IMG/VR virus record: IMGVR_UViG_3300028805_000081 | Location: 32,001-96,000 of that record | Length of the DNA: 64,000 bases | Strand: one strand, 5' to 3' | DNA from: a virus | Taxonomy: Duplodnaviria > Caudoviricetes | Shown here: in pieces, positions 959 through 36,502 of the stretch | How positions within the stretch are numbered: the stretch's first letter is position 1 | Layout of the letters: each line of letters opens with the position of its first letter | Notes under the pieces: model-generated | What the model was told of the DNA's origin: nothing | Seen by the model: only the letters and a program-made list of their open reading frames with translations | Database searches by the model: none | Translations under genes and position numbers: made by a program

Positions 959-1030
959 TTGCAGCACCGGGAATTGAACCCGGATCTACAGGTTATGAGC
1001 CTGTTGTGTTACCATTACACTCATGCTGCG
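959..1030 (-). tRNA. tRNA-Met(CAT), initiator-like
   Basis: Cloverleaf CGCAGCA...ACAGG-CTCATAA-CCTGT...GGTTCAATTCC...TGCTGCAA; C1:A72 mismatch. Confidence 0.9.
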
Positions 1031-1413: not shown

Positions 1414-2325
1414 TTATGGTTTCTCCGATTTTTTCTTAGCTCTCGATTCTCTCATGTTACGTCTTTTCTGTTCAAGTCTTACTTCTCTTTGGCAACACTC
1501 ACAGCGTTTTCTTTTACATTTCCCTTCGGGTATTTCAAACGCTCTGCCACAAACCTCACAAACGCATACTCTTGATTTTACATGTTTATTACAATGATAG
1601 TGGTTATTTGAGTTTGGTTTAAATATCACACCACAGTCAACACAAACTCTATAAAATGCACCGTTCGCTTTTTCCCACCACATTCCAAGATTGGTAATGT
1701 TGGTGACTTCAAATACCGGTTCTCCTTCCAAATCCAAAATCTCGACTGCAATACTTGTTTTTAACATACTTCTTGCTGGCGTGATATATTTCTGCATGTA
1801 AAGATCATGAAGTATACACAAGAAGTTGTCAAAATTGTGGTTGATGTTTGCCAAATGGATAATTTCACTATCGGTTGTATTTACCCAATTATGCCTGTAT
1901 GTGATGTAATTCATCTTTGCAAGAACAAGATATGTGAACATAACTTTTTTGATTGGCTGCGTAGACAGTTCATTGATTTTATCAATTTCTTTCTGAGTTA
2001 TCGGAATTGATTCAATATCTCTAAGCGGTTTCTTATGAGCATCATTTGCAATCGCTTCCATTGTGTTATGCCATTGATTTTCATTAAAACCAGCTCTGTT
2101 TGCCTTCAAATACTCTGACACTTCTTTTACAGCAGCTTCTGGACTATACCCTTTATTATTCACATAGTATCTGATGAGTATATTCACTATTTGTCTTATC
2201 TTACACAATGAAAGATTTATGTCTTTCAGGATCAGTTCAGCTTCTTTAACTTCATTAAGGATTAACAACCTTACACTTCCTTTCAGAAAATCTGTAGCCA
2301 TTAAATTCAATATCCCCGGCATCAT
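1414..2325 (-). CDS. Hypothetical protein with C-terminal Cys-rich Zn ribbons (start probably TTG ~2268)
   Basis: CVDC, CEVC and CECC motifs; directly downstream of the RNAP gene. Confidence 0.7.
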   Translation of the reverse strand: MMPGILNLMATDFLKGSVRLLILNEVKEAELILKDINLSLCKIRQIVNILIRYYVNNKGYSPEAAVKEVSEYLKANRAGFNENQWHNTMEAIANDAHKKPLRDIESIPITQKEIDKINELSTQPIKKVMFTYLVLAKMNYITYRHNWVNTTDSEIIHLANINHNFDNFLCILHDLYMQKYITPARSMLKTSIAVEILDLEGEPVFEVTNITNLGMWWEKANGAFYRVCVDCGVIFKPNSNNHYHCNKHVKSRVCVCEVCGRAFEIPEGKCKRKRCECCQREVRLEQKRRNMRESRAKKKSEKP

Positions 2326-3349
2326 CTCTTGTGATGTAGCTCAGTTCAAAATTGTTTTTGACAAGAAGATTTTCTATGATTTGTTCTCCACATATATCCC
2401 ATGCAAACGCCTTTGTTCTCTCGCTTGTATAGCAAAGGTCAAGGATAATTTCACAAAGTATTTTTGAGTTTGGGCAGATCTCAAAAGCCTTTTCCTTGAA
2501 CTCTCTGCCTATTTCCTTGAATCTATCTGTGTAATCATCGCCTGACGTTCTCATTTCGTTCTTCTCAATATCCAGCCTTGCCTTACGCTTCGTATATTCA
2601 ACATAAAGCTTTACAATTTCAGATGCAATCTTTGGATCATATCTTGTGTTGGACTTCATAATAGTATAGTCGAAAGGAGTTTTAGCCTTTACGCTGCTTT
2701 TAAATCCTTTAAACTCATCTTCTACCATATGACAAAGGCGGTTCATAGTGCTGATGTTATCATTAACAGGATAGAGCTTTTCATACCATTCAATCCATTC
2801 TTTCTGTTCTTCAGTATGTTCAGACAGAGCAAATAATTCTTTTGTACTCATTCTGAACAGCATCTTGCACTGGCGTTCCGCAGTCTTGACAAACGACTTA
2901 TATTTCTTATCAAGATCCGGATAGATGTATCTCATAAAGTATGGTTTCTTGTCTGCACATATTGTATTATTAAATATATCTTCTTCAGATAATTCGGCAT
3001 CACCTTTCGGTTTGATAGGGGAGTACCAATATTTTGGCATATTGTAACATATAGTACCTTTTACTGCATCTATGTCGCTTTGCTGAAAGTATTCTCCACA
3101 TATAATCCTATATGTTAAAATATTTGACTCTATACTATCAGCCGGGAATAGTGGCAGCAAATCATACATGCTCGTTACCCTGTTGGTGATTGCGCCAACC
3201 TTTGAACCAAACGCCTTTTTATTTCCTTCTCTTAAAAGATCCTCTGTAACTAAAGTTTTTTCGGCTGAATTTGACGCACACATTATCGTAGGTTCATATC
3301 TCCAATTTTTAATTAGCACATCATTATTTGTTGTAAAAACAATATCGCT
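2255..3349 (-). CDS. YonO-like single-subunit (RdRP-fold) RNA polymerase, exon 2
   Basis: In frame with ORF 2255..3319; begins SDIVFTTNN, completing the DKD/SD metal-binding motif; VGAITN, QQSDIDAVKG and KKPYFMRY motifs. Confidence 0.85.
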   Translation of the reverse strand, partial: SDIVFTTNNDVLIKNWRYEPTIMCASNSAEKTLVTEDLLREGNKKAFGSKVGAITNRVTSMYDLLPLFPADSIESNILTYRIICGEYFQQSDIDAVKGTICYNMPKYWYSPIKPKGDAELSEEDIFNNTICADKKPYFMRYIYPDLDKKYKSFVKTAERQCKMLFRMSTKELFALSEHTEEQKEWIEWYEKLYPVNDNISTMNRLCHMVEDEFKGFKSSVKAKTPFDYTIMKSNTRYDPKIASEIVKLYVEYTKRKARLDIEKNEMRTSGDDYTDRFKEIGREFKEKAFEICPNSKILCEIILDLCYTSERTKAFAWDICGEQIIENLLVKNNFELSYITRDDAGDIEFNGYRFSERKCKVVNP

Positions 3350-3663
3350 CCTTGATACCCTCGGTTTCCCGATATTTATTAGGGGAGTAGATCATCTCAT
3401 CACCTTATGTCAATTCATAAGCATCACTGGGATTTCTCCGTGTTTGGCACTTGCTTTTAGGATTTGCACCTATCGCTACGGATTTCATAGGCTCATTAGA
3501 GTCCGTATATCCTGATCGTTACACCTTCAAAAACATCACTGTTTAAGCTTGGCACGGTATTTTCATGAAGTTAATTACTTTTTAGATTTCCACCGTTAGC
3601 ACGTATTTACGCACACCTTACATTTGTAAGTTCACCAAATTTTACAAGGACAATGGAATGTTT
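3350..3663 (-). ncRNA. Group I self-splicing intron (314 nt, no homing-endonuclease ORF)
   Basis: Exon ends in U; P1 ACAAGGAU/GUCCUUGU with U.G at the splice site; core elements AACGGTG, AATACCGTGCCAAG, GTAACGATCA and GAGATGATCTAC (P7 GATCA/TGATC); terminal G; removal restores the frame. Confidence 0.9.
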
Positions 3664-5298
3664 ATCCTTGTCTGCCCCGTTTAAAGCGTGACAGAAACTA
3701 TCATGACAATTCAGCATGATTAAATTTCCACAATACCTGTACCAATAATCAGCTTCAGTATTATTTGAACATACTTTCATCTTCCTGATATTTGCATGAC
3801 AGCTCATCGGACTTCGATAACAGGCTACTTCTTCAGATCCTTTATCTTTCCAAAACTTATGATAAATCTCACCCGCTTTCAGCAATCCATAATCTTCATT
3901 TTTTACATCAAGCTTAAAAATATACTGGCACAAAGCATATGGATCTCCAACGATTATACCAAAGTTGCCTTTAACCTTTACAACACCTATTTCCGCATCT
4001 TTTATTTTCTTAGCAATCAGTGAGCTTACTCTGTTGATTACATACGGATCATTCATCATTTCCGGGCAAATCTGAATTGCCTTAATCCAGTCATCTTCAC
4101 CGATAGCATTTTCATCGGTAATCTTCATGCCTTTCAGAAATAACAATGTTTTTTGCCTGTCGTAATGAATTATATCCTTTATTTCATCAACAGTAGGGGA
4201 GATGAGTTCATGTATCTGACCGTTTGTCAGCTCATAACTCTGTATAAACTGGTAATTCAGCGTCCGGACTTCATCAAGTTCCTTCGGAGTGACCTTTGTA
4301 ACAGACAGCGTATACATATTTTTATGACATTTCTGAATGTATTCGTCAATGCTATCATATGCACTCCAAAGTTTCAGCATTGAAGTAGTAAGTATAAGAT
4401 CAATGTCAAATATATCATGCTCCTTGCCCCAAACATCTGTAACAATCTGCTTGTTATGAACTCTCGCAAACTCCTTAAAATCGAACGTAGCTACCATACC
4501 TTTGGTAAAGGCATATCGTATGCAGCATCCACTCATCAGATAATCAAGATGCATATCATCTGACCATATCTGAGCCATCTCCGGACTGATTAATCCGTAC
4601 CCATCTGACTCATCAAGTTCTATTTCTGCGGTCTTATACTGCATAACAGGTTCATCGCTCTCACTGTTGTCAAGGTAAATAACATCTTCAGTGAAGTGAG
4701 TAATAAGATCATCTACAACAAGAATCCTGTCAGTATTTGTAACCGGATAGCTGCCACTCAGAGTTAAAGCCTTATAAGCTTCATACTTTGCCGGAACAAT
4801 CTTGTAATCTGATCGTCTGCCGTTCTCAACAAGCCCGTTAAGATAATCACGTATATCTTCCCGGCAGTACATTACAGTACACTTCTTTACCTGATTTGGA
4901 GAACCGATAAACCTATAATACTTCATTCCGTTTACGCTAAATCCGTCCATCCTATCTATGTCACTTGGCTTATCCATCACAACATTGATAAGCTCCGGGA
5001 TAAACTGCATAGTATTAAGTTCATCATACAAAGTCTTGATGTACTTCTTATTCTCAGGCGTATTATCTTTCTTCTTAGTATCTTTGATTATCTTCTTGAT
5101 CCGTTCGTAGCACTCCATCTCATGTGCCCGGTCTTTATGATTGTAGAAATCCAGCCATCTGACAACCTGACTGTCAGATATTGAAATCACCTGATCATTC
5201 GTTCTTGCTGTTACAAAGGGTAACTGCAATACCTTATCCGAAAGTATATCCTTGCTGTGCAGTTTATAAATATATCTCGGAAACATAATACTTTTCAT
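3664..5298 (-). CDS. YonO-like single-subunit (RdRP-fold) RNA polymerase, exon 1
   Basis: SDGYGLI, IRYAFTKGM, LNYQFIQ, GDPY, CYRSPM and LNGADKD motifs; GAGGTG RBS before ATG 5298. Confidence 0.85.
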
Positions 5299-11165: not shown

Positions 11166-12263
11166 ATGAACGTTTATTACAGATTAGCCGGTGTATATTA
11201 CATTAAAAACAATATCAACGGCAAGATTTATATCGGTGAGTCAACAGATATTCCGTCAAGATGGAGATCACATATAATTGATTTAAGGAATGGGGAACAT
11301 GATAATACTGCCCTTCAGGATGATTATCTTAAATATGGGTATAATAATTTCAGTTTTGGCATTTTAGAGTATATTATAATTCCCGATGGAATGAAACCAA
11401 ATCAACATATCGTTGATTATATAAAGGTTGAAATGGTTTTATTAATGCGAGAATTTTATTATCAGAATTTATATGATAAAACGCAGACTTACAATGTTGA
11501 GTTTACACTTAGAAAAGTATATCAAACAAATGTTTTCCCTAATATTCCATCAAGCTTTCTAATTTCAGATCTTAATTGTTATGATTATCATAAAGAAATT
11601 GGTAACAATAAAAGCTTGTTTACTACTGAAAATGCTGCAATATTAATATATAATTATTTTATGTCCAAAGATCTTCTTCCGATTAAACCAAATTGCAGTC
11701 GACCTATAGAAACAGAAAATTTAAATTCTAATAAAGTACAATACAAACCTAAAAAAGCAGAAGTGCCTGATACTCTCCCGGATTTCATCAGGTTCATCAA
11801 ACCTTACAATCCATCGGATATGTTGTTTTATAAATTCCAGTTTGACGAAATAAATAAATCCCTAAATGAAAATGACGAATCAAATATACCATATTACTCT
11901 TGTTCAGTCATTTACTATTATCTTGTCGTTAATAAATATTTAGCAGTAGCAGATGGTGCCCCTAAATATATTCCTACAGATAAGTCTTTTAATGAGGATT
12001 TATTTTATTTATCGGCAACTTCAACAGATAAGAATTTTAAATTATATATTACCGGTAAAGGCAAGCAGTTTATGGATAATATTGTTTCTAATATAGAGGA
12101 ATGGATTAAAGAAATCCCGACATTTATTGAATATAATCCGAAGATTAGTAATAACATAATTAAAGCAGATTGTGATTTCTTGGATTATAACGTTATACAA
12201 ATGATACCATACAGTAAACTTAAATTTTTTTCTGAAGTCGAGGAGAAATTAAAATCATCTTAA
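11166..12263 (+). CDS. GIY-YIG endonuclease domain fused to KilAC/ANT-like C-terminal domain
   Basis: GVYYIKN...IYIGES...RWRSH...HDN.ALQ at the N-terminus; YIPTDKS...LYITGKGKQF at the C-terminus. Confidence 0.75.
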   Translation: MNVYYRLAGVYYIKNNINGKIYIGESTDIPSRWRSHIIDLRNGEHDNTALQDDYLKYGYNNFSFGILEYIIIPDGMKPNQHIVDYIKVEMVLLMREFYYQNLYDKTQTYNVEFTLRKVYQTNVFPNIPSSFLISDLNCYDYHKEIGNNKSLFTTENAAILIYNYFMSKDLLPIKPNCSRPIETENLNSNKVQYKPKKAEVPDTLPDFIRFIKPYNPSDMLFYKFQFDEINKSLNENDESNIPYYSCSVIYYYLVVNKYLAVADGAPKYIPTDKSFNEDLFYLSATSTDKNFKLYITGKGKQFMDNIVSNIEEWIKEIPTFIEYNPKISNNIIKADCDFLDYNVIQMIPYSKLKFFSEVEEKLKSS

Positions 12264-31998: not shown

Positions 31999-32040
31999 AA
32001 AATTAAGTGCTAAAAGTTCTATAATTTTTATAGAAAGGTA

Positions 32041-32225: not shown

Positions 32226-32297
32226 TGCGGTATCGTCTAATTGGTAGGACAAAAGAATTTGGATCTTTTAGTTAGGGTTCGAGTCCCTATGCTGCAA
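32226..32297 (+). tRNA. tRNA-Gln(TTG)
   Basis: Cloverleaf; anticodon arm AAAGA-ATTTGGA-TCTTT; GGTTCGAGTCC T arm. Confidence 0.85.
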
Positions 32298-32804: not shown

Positions 32805-32878
32805 GGGAATTTAGCTCAGTTGGTTAGAGCACCTGACTGTTAATCAGGGTGTCACTGGTTCAAGTCCAGTATTTCCCG
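32805..32878 (+). tRNA. tRNA-Asn(GTT)
   Basis: Cloverleaf; CCTGA-CTGTTAA-TCAGG anticodon arm. Confidence 0.92.
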
Positions 32879-35719: not shown

Positions 35720-36502
35720 ATGAGAAAGATAGATTTAACTGGTCAAAGGTTTAGCTATCTTACTGTCATAGAAGAAGATCTTGAAAAATCCACTCCGGGA
35801 AACATCAAATGGAAGTGCCGTTGTGATTGCGGAAACATTGTTACAGTTAAAGGTGGAAATTTGAAATCAGGGAACACTACGAGTTGTGGTTGTAATCAGA
35901 GAAGAATTTGCTCTGAAATGTTAAAACAATATAATCGCTATGATCTAACTGGAGAATATGGGATTGGCTATGACAATAATGGGAAAACATTTTCTTTTGA
36001 CTTAGATGATTATGACTTAATAAAAGATTATTGCTGGAATGTTCATAAAGAATACAGGAAGAAATCAAATGGAGAACAGACAGGCGTAGAATATTATGTA
36101 ACTGGCTTTTATAGAGATTCTGCTAACAATAAAAGGCGTATGAGGTTACATAGATTAATAATGGGCGTTGTTGATAATCCTGAAGTTTTTATTGATCATA
36201 TAGACGGAAACGGATGCAATAATCAAAAATCAAACTTAAGAATTTGTACTTGCTTAGAAAATGCGTGGAATGTTAAGCCGAGAAAAAATACATCGTCTAA
36301 ATATAAAGGTGTATATTATCATTCGCAAACACGTAAATGGCAAGCTCGTATAAATAAAAATAAAAAAGCATATTATTTAGGTTTGTTTGAAACTGAAGAA
36401 GCAGCAGCAGAAGCATATAACAAGGCTGCGATAGAGTTATTCGGTGAGTTTGCTCGGTTAAATGAGATTCATTATGACAATGAAATAAAAGAAGCTATTT
36501 AA
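35720..36502 (+). CDS. HNH homing endonuclease with C-terminal AP2 domain
   Basis: DLTGQRF..WKCRCDCG; LHRLIM..IDHIDGNGCNNQKSNLR; SKYKGV..WQARI..YLGLFETEEAAAEAYN. Confidence 0.9.
   Translation: MRKIDLTGQRFSYLTVIEEDLEKSTPGNIKWKCRCDCGNIVTVKGGNLKSGNTTSCGCNQRRICSEMLKQYNRYDLTGEYGIGYDNNGKTFSFDLDDYDLIKDYCWNVHKEYRKKSNGEQTGVEYYVTGFYRDSANNKRRMRLHRLIMGVVDNPEVFIDHIDGNGCNNQKSNLRICTCLENAWNVKPRKNTSSKYKGVYYHSQTRKWQARINKNKKAYYLGLFETEEAAAEAYNKAAIELFGEFARLNEIHYDNEIKEAI

Follow-up and report, generated by a model that had tools for sequence, protein, structure and literature searches.

An interrupted RNA polymerase gene

The 64,000-nt window analysed here (positions 32,001 to 96,000 of IMG/VR virus record IMGVR_UViG_3300028805_000081, from a member of the Caudoviricetes) carries on its minus strand a gene for a YonO-like RNA polymerase that is interrupted from 3663 to 3350 by a 314-nt insert, which is very probably a group I intron whose removal is required to make the enzyme. 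On the 5' side, an open reading frame (ORF) that is open from TTG 5313, with its likeliest start at ATG 5298 (where homologues P0001 and P0003 begin), reads through ...HALNGADKD and a further 18 codons into the insert before it stops at 3609-3607; on the 3' side, a second open frame runs from 3349 (SDIVFTTNNDVLIKNW..., with AGC GAT ATT encoding SDI) to a stop at 2257-2255. Taking out 3663..3350 joins GAT/AGC in frame (here and below, a slash within a codon or protein motif marks the insertion point) and yields a protein of 909 amino acids (aa) from ATG 5298, reading ...NGADKD/SDIVF... across the junction. An initial annotation of this DNA, made from the sequence alone, had joined the two ORFs by removing 3350-3663 to give LNGADKD/SDIVF, and both its boundaries and its product were correct.

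Exon 1 matches the Pfam family PF05183 (RdRP; E=1.9e-12, above the family cut-off), the family to which YonO belongs, and is an end-to-end match to phrog_25339; exon 2 matches phrog_35857 (E=1e-60). By tblastn, exon 1 matched Clostridium phage c-st (40%) and SPbeta yonO (26%, E=1e-21), and exon 2 matched c-st, PMBT24 and BUCT082. More than 3800 polymerase homologues were recovered at E<=1e-10, and no solved structure is sequence-related to the polymerase. The nearest named relatives come from a Lachnospiraceae metagenome-assembled genome (MAG; 66%), Enterocloster phages (44%) and c-st (40%). Because the polymerase is nearest to these Lachnospiraceae and Clostridium phage genes and ~26% identical to YonO, the source phage, represented by a 109.9-kb record with a CheckV completeness estimate of 60%, is not SPbeta-like but rather a gut Clostridia-type phage of ~110-180 kb.

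The insert lies between the second and third Asp codons of the metal-binding triad (DKD/SD), inside the DxDxD motif of the YonO-like polymerase, where the initial annotation had placed it. Only once it is removed does DKD/SD line up with DNDGD of YonO, DFDGD of PMBT24 and DFDYD of BUCT082, and the joined protein is then gap-free over the junction in comparison with intron-less homologues of 26-91% identity: PMBT24 reads NGCDFD/GDAIYSTNN, BUCT082 GSDFD/YDIIATT and SPbeta YonO DND/GDKALI; the Lachnospiraceae MAG (locus L009) has a single 908-aa ORF, 66% identical, with DADGD (reading NGADADGDIFLTTDN); and metagenomic locus L010 encodes a continuous 908-aa protein (P0002), 91% identical. These intron-less genes are all collinear with the window across the junction, in keeping with the proposed splice. 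The window's motif reads DKDSD rather than DxDGD, as had been remarked on earlier, and the Ser belongs to the lineage and was not created by the way the exons were joined, since the intron-less L010 protein has DKDSD too. At the fourth position, 59 of the 74 homologues with an uninterrupted motif carry Gly, against 14 with Ser and one with Ala; judged by these counts, DKDSD is a natural minority variant of DxDGD.

The Asp triad of YonO is needed for catalysis, a 3D>3N mutant being inactive (PMC5467207). Exon 2 offers two in-frame start candidates, ATT 3343 and GTG 3319, and because both are downstream of the third Asp codon (3346-3344), no independently translated exon 2 product would contain that residue. 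With the intron between the second and third Asp codons, active enzyme would be expected from spliced mRNA only, which agrees with the earlier view that splicing is obligatory for enzyme activity.

A probable group I intron: the evidence

The insert contains no sense-strand ORF of 40 aa or longer and hence, as stated before, no ORF for a homing endonuclease. At its 5' end, the last exon base U pairs with intron G13 within a predicted P1 formed by exon ACAAGGAU and intron GUCCUUGU; at its 3' end, the terminal intron base at 3350 is a G (omega-G), and no other choice of boundary preserves both the reading frame and collinearity with intron-less alleles. Among relatives interrupted at the same codon boundary, the P1 guide tracks the exon: AUAUGGAU pairs with GUCCAUAU in L019, and CAUGGAU with GUUCAUG in L020. 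The U.G splice site in P1 (U3664.G3651), the terminal G and the P7 pairing had all been noticed in the initial annotation and were recovered here, P7 as GAUCA with UGAUC.

A nhmmer profile built from five other introns, none of them from the source phage, matched the 64-kb window at a single place, 3653..3361 (E=2.1e-35), and chance resemblance is thereby ruled out. Over 200 phage records contain sites that match the 55-nt block at the 3' end with 87-92% identity; these lie in gaps without annotation and in split genes, among them those for DNA polymerase and terminase. Over the whole intron, DNA similarity is highest to the intron in the DNA polymerase I gene of Agatevirus SDFMU_Pbc, 80% identical in two stretches (nt ~11-308; 43% query cover). 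A group II intron, an intein and an insertion sequence (IS) element were ruled out by the 314-nt size, the lack of an ORF and of terminal repeats, and the group I core.

Covariation was counted on 27 aligned ORF-less cores over six helices (P3, two hairpins, P4, P7 and P7.2). Across 30 pairs, 98.1% of cells were paired, against 78.5% in shuffled alignments and 30-45% when partners were slid; 19 of the 30 pairs had double-sided changes, and none of 500 shuffles reached the observed covariation score. P3 was paired in 100% of cells over the 27 sequences, and each of its three variable pairs had 14-17 double changes. Members of this alignment were selected partly by P7 complementarity; P3, P4 and the hairpins were not selection criteria. 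In a broader sample, a pattern covering part of the 5' region only was found at more than 118 sites in IMG/VR, and in 56 of the 61 distinct members with this 5' pattern a downstream AAG-YGCY-NNN is fully complementary to the variable NNNGGUG of P3.

The core of the window intron is intact by the same comparison: of the 65 columns in which the other 26 sequences hardly vary, it matches 63, and the two exceptions are both sides of one P7 pair. An adjacent, less invariant P7 pair is also changed on both strands, which gives GAUCA/UGAUC in place of the family's GACUA/UAGUC. Since family member L133 has GAUCA/UGAUC as well, and phi3T has GACCA/UGGUC, the P7 of the window, read from these alignments, is a compensated variant of that of the family.

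Predicted secondary structure of the intron

The predicted elements are listed in Table 1.

Table 1. Features of the interrupted polymerase locus, in window coordinates.
Feature	Position	Strand	Description
Exon 1 of YonO-like two-barrel RNA polymerase gene	3664..5298	-	545 codons; ends ...NGADKD, GAT at 3666-3664
Exon 2	2255..3349	-	364 codons + stop; begins AGC GAT (Ser, then third catalytic Asp at 3346-3344)
Probable group IA-type intron	3350..3663	-	314 nt, ORF-less; intron nt n = window 3664-n
P1	3644..3671	-	exon -8..-1 ACAAGGAU (3671-3664) with nt 13-20 GUCCUUGU (3651-3644); minimum free energy (MFE) fold; U3664.G3651 wobble at 5' splice site
P3 5' strand UUUGGUG	3633..3639	-	nt 25-31; pairs with 3449-3443
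Hairpins A (nt 34-47) and B (nt 52-63)	3601..3630	-	between P3 5' strand and J3/4; both covary; naming uncertain
J3/4 UAA			nt 66-68
P4 (P/Q elements)	3554..3596	-	nt 68-73 with 105-110; encloses P5/P5a
P6 hairpin, GUGA loop	3528..3547	-	nt 117-136; from family alignment and constrained fold; followed by conserved J6/7 AAGGUGUAA
P7 5' strand GAUCA	3513..3517	-	nt 147-151; R element AACGAUCA; C146 bulged
P7.1 (nt 152-184) and P7.2 (nt 192-206)	3458..3512	-	P7.1 with conserved AUAC/AUGAA internal loop
P3 3' strand UGCCAAA	3443..3449	-	nt 215-221; upstream of P8
Extra hairpin (nt 222-239, loop AGAAAU), then P8 (nt 243-260)	3404..3442	-	hairpin lineage-specific
P7 3' strand UGAUC	3390..3394	-	nt 270-274; S element GAGAUGAUCU
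P9/P9a and 3' end	3350..3384	-	GAAA tetraloop (nt 280-306), tail UAUCAAGG, omega-G nt 314 at 3350
Downstream cistron	1414..2325	-	303 aa; overlaps polymerase stop codon

By analogy, G147-C274, which lies beside the bulged C146, would be the guanosine-binding pair. The outer helix of P7.1 varies across relatives (GGAU/AUCC, AGAC/GUCU, CCGG/CCGG and GGGC/GCCC), and relative L011 has an HNH endonuclease gene in the P5a loop, near nt 88/89 (window 3576/3575). In most aligned relatives (e.g., L019, L020 and L007), P8 follows directly after the 3' strand of P3. Because P7.1 and P7.2, a hallmark of subgroup IA, lie between P7 and the P3 3' strand, the intron would belong to that subgroup and be IA2-like, an assignment that is approximate because two hairpins between P3 and J3/4 fall outside the textbook IA2 layout. 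Some candidate pairings were discarded: ACGGA/UCCGU as P4 and CGGAG/CUCC as P7 were overturned by the relatives, which place these segments in P7.1 and the extra hairpin, and P6 as CUU/AAG, paired in 52 of 108 cells on the family alignment, was replaced by C117-G136 together with A120-A124/U129-U133.

Related introns and polymerase genes in other phages

That group I introns occupy conserved catalytic codons of phage genes is long established: those of T4 td and nrdD and of Twort orf142 (IA2) sit in such codons, have in common with the window intron the order P7, P7.1, P7.2, P3', P8, P7', and also share the R/S sequences ACGACUA/UAGUCU and a bulge before the guanosine-binding pair; their P3 leads directly to J3/4, without the two hairpins of the window's family. 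We found no description in the literature of introns in YonO-type polymerase genes, and what is new here is an intron in such a gene, which extends known biology and overturns none of it.

Closest by DNA sequence is the DNA polymerase intron of Agatevirus and phiAGATE, which has the same P3, two hairpins, P4, P6, R/S and P9-GAAA arrangement but differs in its host gene (a family A DNA polymerase), its P1 guide, its P7 (GACUA/UAGUC), a longer P7.1 and the lack of a hairpin before P8. As for the host gene, a group I intron next to a conserved Asp of a phage RNA polymerase is also found in PhiPA3, where it interrupts gp210, which encodes a beta subunit of the virion RNA polymerase, immediately following a pair of conserved Asp in an essential motif (Birkholz et al. 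2024, PMC11620839). There, however, the polymerase is the multi-subunit enzyme of a jumbo Pseudomonas phage, the motif is on the beta side and not the beta'-type DxDGD, and the intron has kept its HNH endonuclease, which nicks intron-less alleles of competing phages (PMC11620839), whereas the window intron has none.

The polymerase gene of c-st (AP008983) corresponds exon for exon to that of the window: CST179 and CST178 are equivalent to exons 1 and 2 (36-40%) and are separated by a 317-nt insert at the identical boundary, DMD/GD. This insert (L001:4166-4482; AP008983 ~165561-165877) has the R element AACGACUA and ends in G, but it is only distantly similar to the window intron outside the 3' core and did not match the regular expressions for the family. 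In the c-st record the parts are annotated as separate ORFs, 'YonO-homolog N-ter only' and 'hypothetical', with CST177 as 'YonO C-ter only'.

SPbeta YonO, a DNA-dependent RNA polymerase with two barrels in a single chain, is the one enzyme of this kind for which RNA synthesis from DNA and late-gene transcription have been shown (Forrest et al. 2017, PMC5467207). It is a homologue of the window protein, its triad DND/GD corresponding to DKD/SD. The two genes differ in that yonO of SPbeta is an intron-less single ORF of 839 aa, whereas the window has Ser for Gly and a separate Cys-rich C-terminal cistron. This downstream cistron (1414..2325) is probably a separately encoded C-terminal part of the polymerase, because its Cys-rich end matches YonO residues 790-819. 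The same two-cistron layout is present in c-st (CST177), PMBT24, L009 and L010, and in this clade the equivalent of YonO appears from its genes to be two polypeptides. An antisense ORF (3168..3515, 115 aa) on the other strand across the intron/exon boundary was set aside as presumably spurious.

Other members of the intron family were seen both near and far. Within the SPbeta group, phi3T has yonO split at about codon 620 by a ~415-nt intron of the window's family (L005:4483-4897, between phi3T_60 and phi3T_59) with P3 GUCAGUG/CGCUGAC, P4 ACAGG/CCUGU and P7 GACCA/UGGUC; Goe11 and Goe14 are annotated with yonO_1 and yonO_2, and SPbeta (SPBc2) is intron-less. The source phage itself has a second family member outside the window, which splits its anaerobic ribonucleotide reductase gene, nrdD (L212:1880-2250; G000:C1 ~97380-97750; nhmmer E=1.7e-7), the host gene of the classical T4 nrdD/sunY intron, and the ORFs that flank it match Pfam NRDD 1-263 and 286-562. 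Elsewhere in the window there are three tRNA genes, at 960-1029 (-), 32226-32297 (+) and 32805-32878 (+), which score 57-71 bits against RF00005.

Mobility and occupancy among homologues

Related loci in viral contigs were gathered with an alignment-based query, a single-protein query having returned none. One of them, L011 (protein P0003), contains the same intron at 98.6-98.9% identity within a gene whose exon 1 is only 84% identical, and its P5a loop holds a 728-nt insert that encodes a 225-aa NUMOD4+HNH_3 protein: on this alignment, the window copy is the ORF-less form of the L011 intron. The flanks are mosaic. Window and intron-less L010 are 90-100% identical at the nucleotide level over most of the gene, but 55-78% identical, without indels, over ~330 nt upstream and ~330 nt downstream of the insertion site, and in the 30-90 nt that precede the junction the window reaches 93% identity with L011. 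This pattern points to homing with co-conversion, the alternative being recombination with a diverged allele.

Occupancy is patchy, and the intron would thus be primarily selfish. Intron-less alleles of the polymerase gene occur in L009, L010, PMBT24 and BUCT082. Of the best 120 homologue matches, 66 span the full length, 30 stop at the triad and 21 stop ~90 residues beyond it; among 80 IMG/VR loci, nine have an insert at the triad, 17 at a second site (QQx/DID..KG) and two at both, and most are full length at the polymerase gene. Insertions at the triad occur at three points (NG/D.., D/KDGD and DxD/GD), and the endonuclease genes found in polymerase inserts are of NUMOD4-HNH, HNH/AP2-like and GIY-YIG types. 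The second recurrent site, ~92 codons past the triad at a conserved Q..ID..KG motif (window ~3079-3071, QQS/DID), is occupied in L012, L039, L050, L074, L077 and others, usually by ~1-kb introns with HNH or GIY-YIG genes, and is unoccupied in the window gene. In addition, L010:1430-1487, upstream of the polymerase and near the start of a 103-aa ORF, resembles the P9 end of the window intron over 58 nt (81%, with 27 nt at 96%) and may be another intron or a remnant.

The initial annotation pointed to two free-standing genes, at 11166 and 35720, as endonucleases that might mobilise the intron in trans. Both do resemble endonuclease genes: the ORF at 11166-12263 (+) encodes a GIY-YIG protein (E=4.7e-7) and that at 35720-36502 (+) an HNH_3+AP2 protein, and the two resemble endonucleases of second-site introns of other phages at 41% over 70 aa and 30% over 242 aa, respectively, the latter being the enzyme in the second-site polymerase intron of L012. 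A free-standing copy of the L011 enzyme was rejected, since tblastn with the NUMOD4-HNH protein gave no match in the window. There are precedents for mobilisation in trans (PMC2790892), and mobilisation of the window intron by the product of 11166 or 35720 stays a conjecture because neither ORF resembles the L011 enzyme.

Proposed mechanism and alternative explanations

By homology with characterised group I introns, the pre-mRNA would fold with the internal guide GUCCUUGU paired to the end of the exon, ACAAGGAU; a free guanosine held at the G-C pair of P7 would attack after the wobble-paired U, the terminal G314 would then occupy the guanosine site, and ligation of the exons would give GAU/AGC (junction ...GACAAGGAT/AGCGATATT...). 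Only the spliced mRNA would encode the 909-aa enzyme with its full Asp triad, and the unspliced mRNA would give a truncated product of 563 aa (from ATG 5298) that lacks the third Asp. As a mobile element, the intron would have arrived by endonuclease-mediated homing with co-conversion of the flanking exons, and would since have come to be without the endonuclease gene that its close relative in L011 keeps. The phiAGATE DNA polymerase introns, one of which resembles that of the window, are spliced in infected cells (PMC11878797).

Several observations weigh against reading the insert as an active group I intron. The Infernal search with the group I model, suggested in the initial annotation as a check, failed: RF00028 had no match in the window, either at the gathering score (50 bits) or at E<=10. 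However, related introns are all below the gathering score as well, that of the Agatevirus SDFMU_Pbc DNA polymerase scoring 41.2 bits (E=1.7e-7) and those at the same motif of other polymerase homologues 37.4, 34.2 and 25.4 bits, and the Rfam group I model under-represents phage introns (Weglewska et al. 2025, PMC11878797); because of these low-scoring relatives and the weakness of the model on phage introns, we do not hold the miss against the intron. The MFE of the whole insert is not unusual (z=-1.5), and the intron as a whole was assessed by pair counting and an nhmmer profile. The window intron has a weak P5 and a weak P10, an extra hairpin stands between P3' and P8, and the 100% pairing of P7 is not independent evidence, because P7 complementarity was a selection criterion. 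The topology is also atypical: canonical group I introns run from P3 straight into J3/4, and all members of this family have two hairpins in between (27-sequence alignment A5, columns 14-56). We found no description in the literature of two covarying hairpins between the P3 5' strand and J3/4, and report the layout as an observation, claiming no new intron class. Finally, splicing of the window intron may need a cofactor, given that the introns of the phiAGATE polymerase, although spliced in vivo, showed no self-splicing in vitro (PMC11878797).

If the spacer stayed in the RNA, the polymerase could instead be a split gene whose two separately translated polypeptides, from 5298..3607 and from exon 2, assemble into an enzyme. 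Such an arrangement would fit the public annotation of c-st and other phages with two ORFs, the separate families that PHROGs keeps for the two halves, and the C-terminal part of the polymerase, which is in any case a separate cistron; moreover, an AAGGAG at 3353-3348 that spans the 3' junction resembles a ribosome-binding site, and GTG 3319 opens a 354-aa ORF. But the AAGG of that motif is the conserved intron tail UAUCAA(A)GG, which is present in other host genes too, and its AG begins the Ser codon; the third catalytic Asp codon is upstream of every in-frame start in exon 2; homologues of 66-91% identity run through the exact codon boundary; and the spacer is a conserved, covarying group I fold. 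We give a split gene hardly any credence. Nor does it seem at all probable that the intron has decayed into a relic unable to splice and that the polymerase is a pseudogene. The lost endonuclease gene, the RF00028 result, the extra hairpin before P8 and the non-consensus P7 would be expected of a relic, but the two exons together form 909 intact codons that are collinear with homologues, 63 of 65 near-invariant positions are retained, the change in P7 is compensated and recurs in L133, and the near-identical L011 intron has been maintained in a phage with exons that are now only 84% identical.

It is less far-fetched, although still unlikely, that an intron that does splice does so under regulation, with slow, cofactor-dependent or translation-dependent splicing acting as a timer for the polymerase and hence for late transcription, the gating proposed in the initial annotation. 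YonO transcribes the late genes of SPbeta (PMC5467207), mature spliced transcripts of some Bastillevirinae genes appear only in the middle or late part of the cycle, with some introns spliced in vivo only (PMC11878797), and the activity of the polymerase would depend absolutely on splicing. However, many close homologues are intron-less (66 of the best 120 matches being full length, as are most of the 80 IMG/VR loci), and such patchy occupancy is expected of a selfish and not of a regulatory element; the mosaic flanks and the endonuclease-bearing twin indicate mobility, and no regulatory element was identified. A wider reading joins these strands, and we offer it as a speculation that is somewhat easier to entertain than gating by itself but doubtful as a whole: the triad codons of YonO-type polymerases may be a contested homing hot spot for one atypical IA family that is largely invisible to Rfam and would have entered at three points inside a span of four codons and once more 92 codons downstream, bringing at least three endonuclease types; an ORF-less copy would then be retained since it destroys the target site and so shields the gene from the endonucleases of co-infecting relatives (cf. 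PhiPA3 versus PhiKZ), while the rate of splicing would also time the late polymerase. Overall, we strongly favour a group I intron that must be removed to make the polymerase.

Implications

In large phages of Firmicutes, annotations often break YonO-type polymerase genes into two or three 'hypothetical' ORFs that are treated as unrelated, as in c-st, which is botulinum-toxin-converting, and in SPbeta relatives of the phi3T type. Recognising the introns restores a single essential gene and corrects the boundaries of protein families, the halves being separate in PHROGs. The intron family is widespread (more than 118 IMG/VR sites) and mostly missed by Rfam, and its alignment could seed a better model. 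With intron-less, endonuclease-bearing and ORF-less alleles and mosaic flanks, the locus is a natural series for the study of homing and phage-phage interference at the active site of a polymerase. The main value of the finding thus lies in annotation and in a natural system for homing at a polymerase active site.

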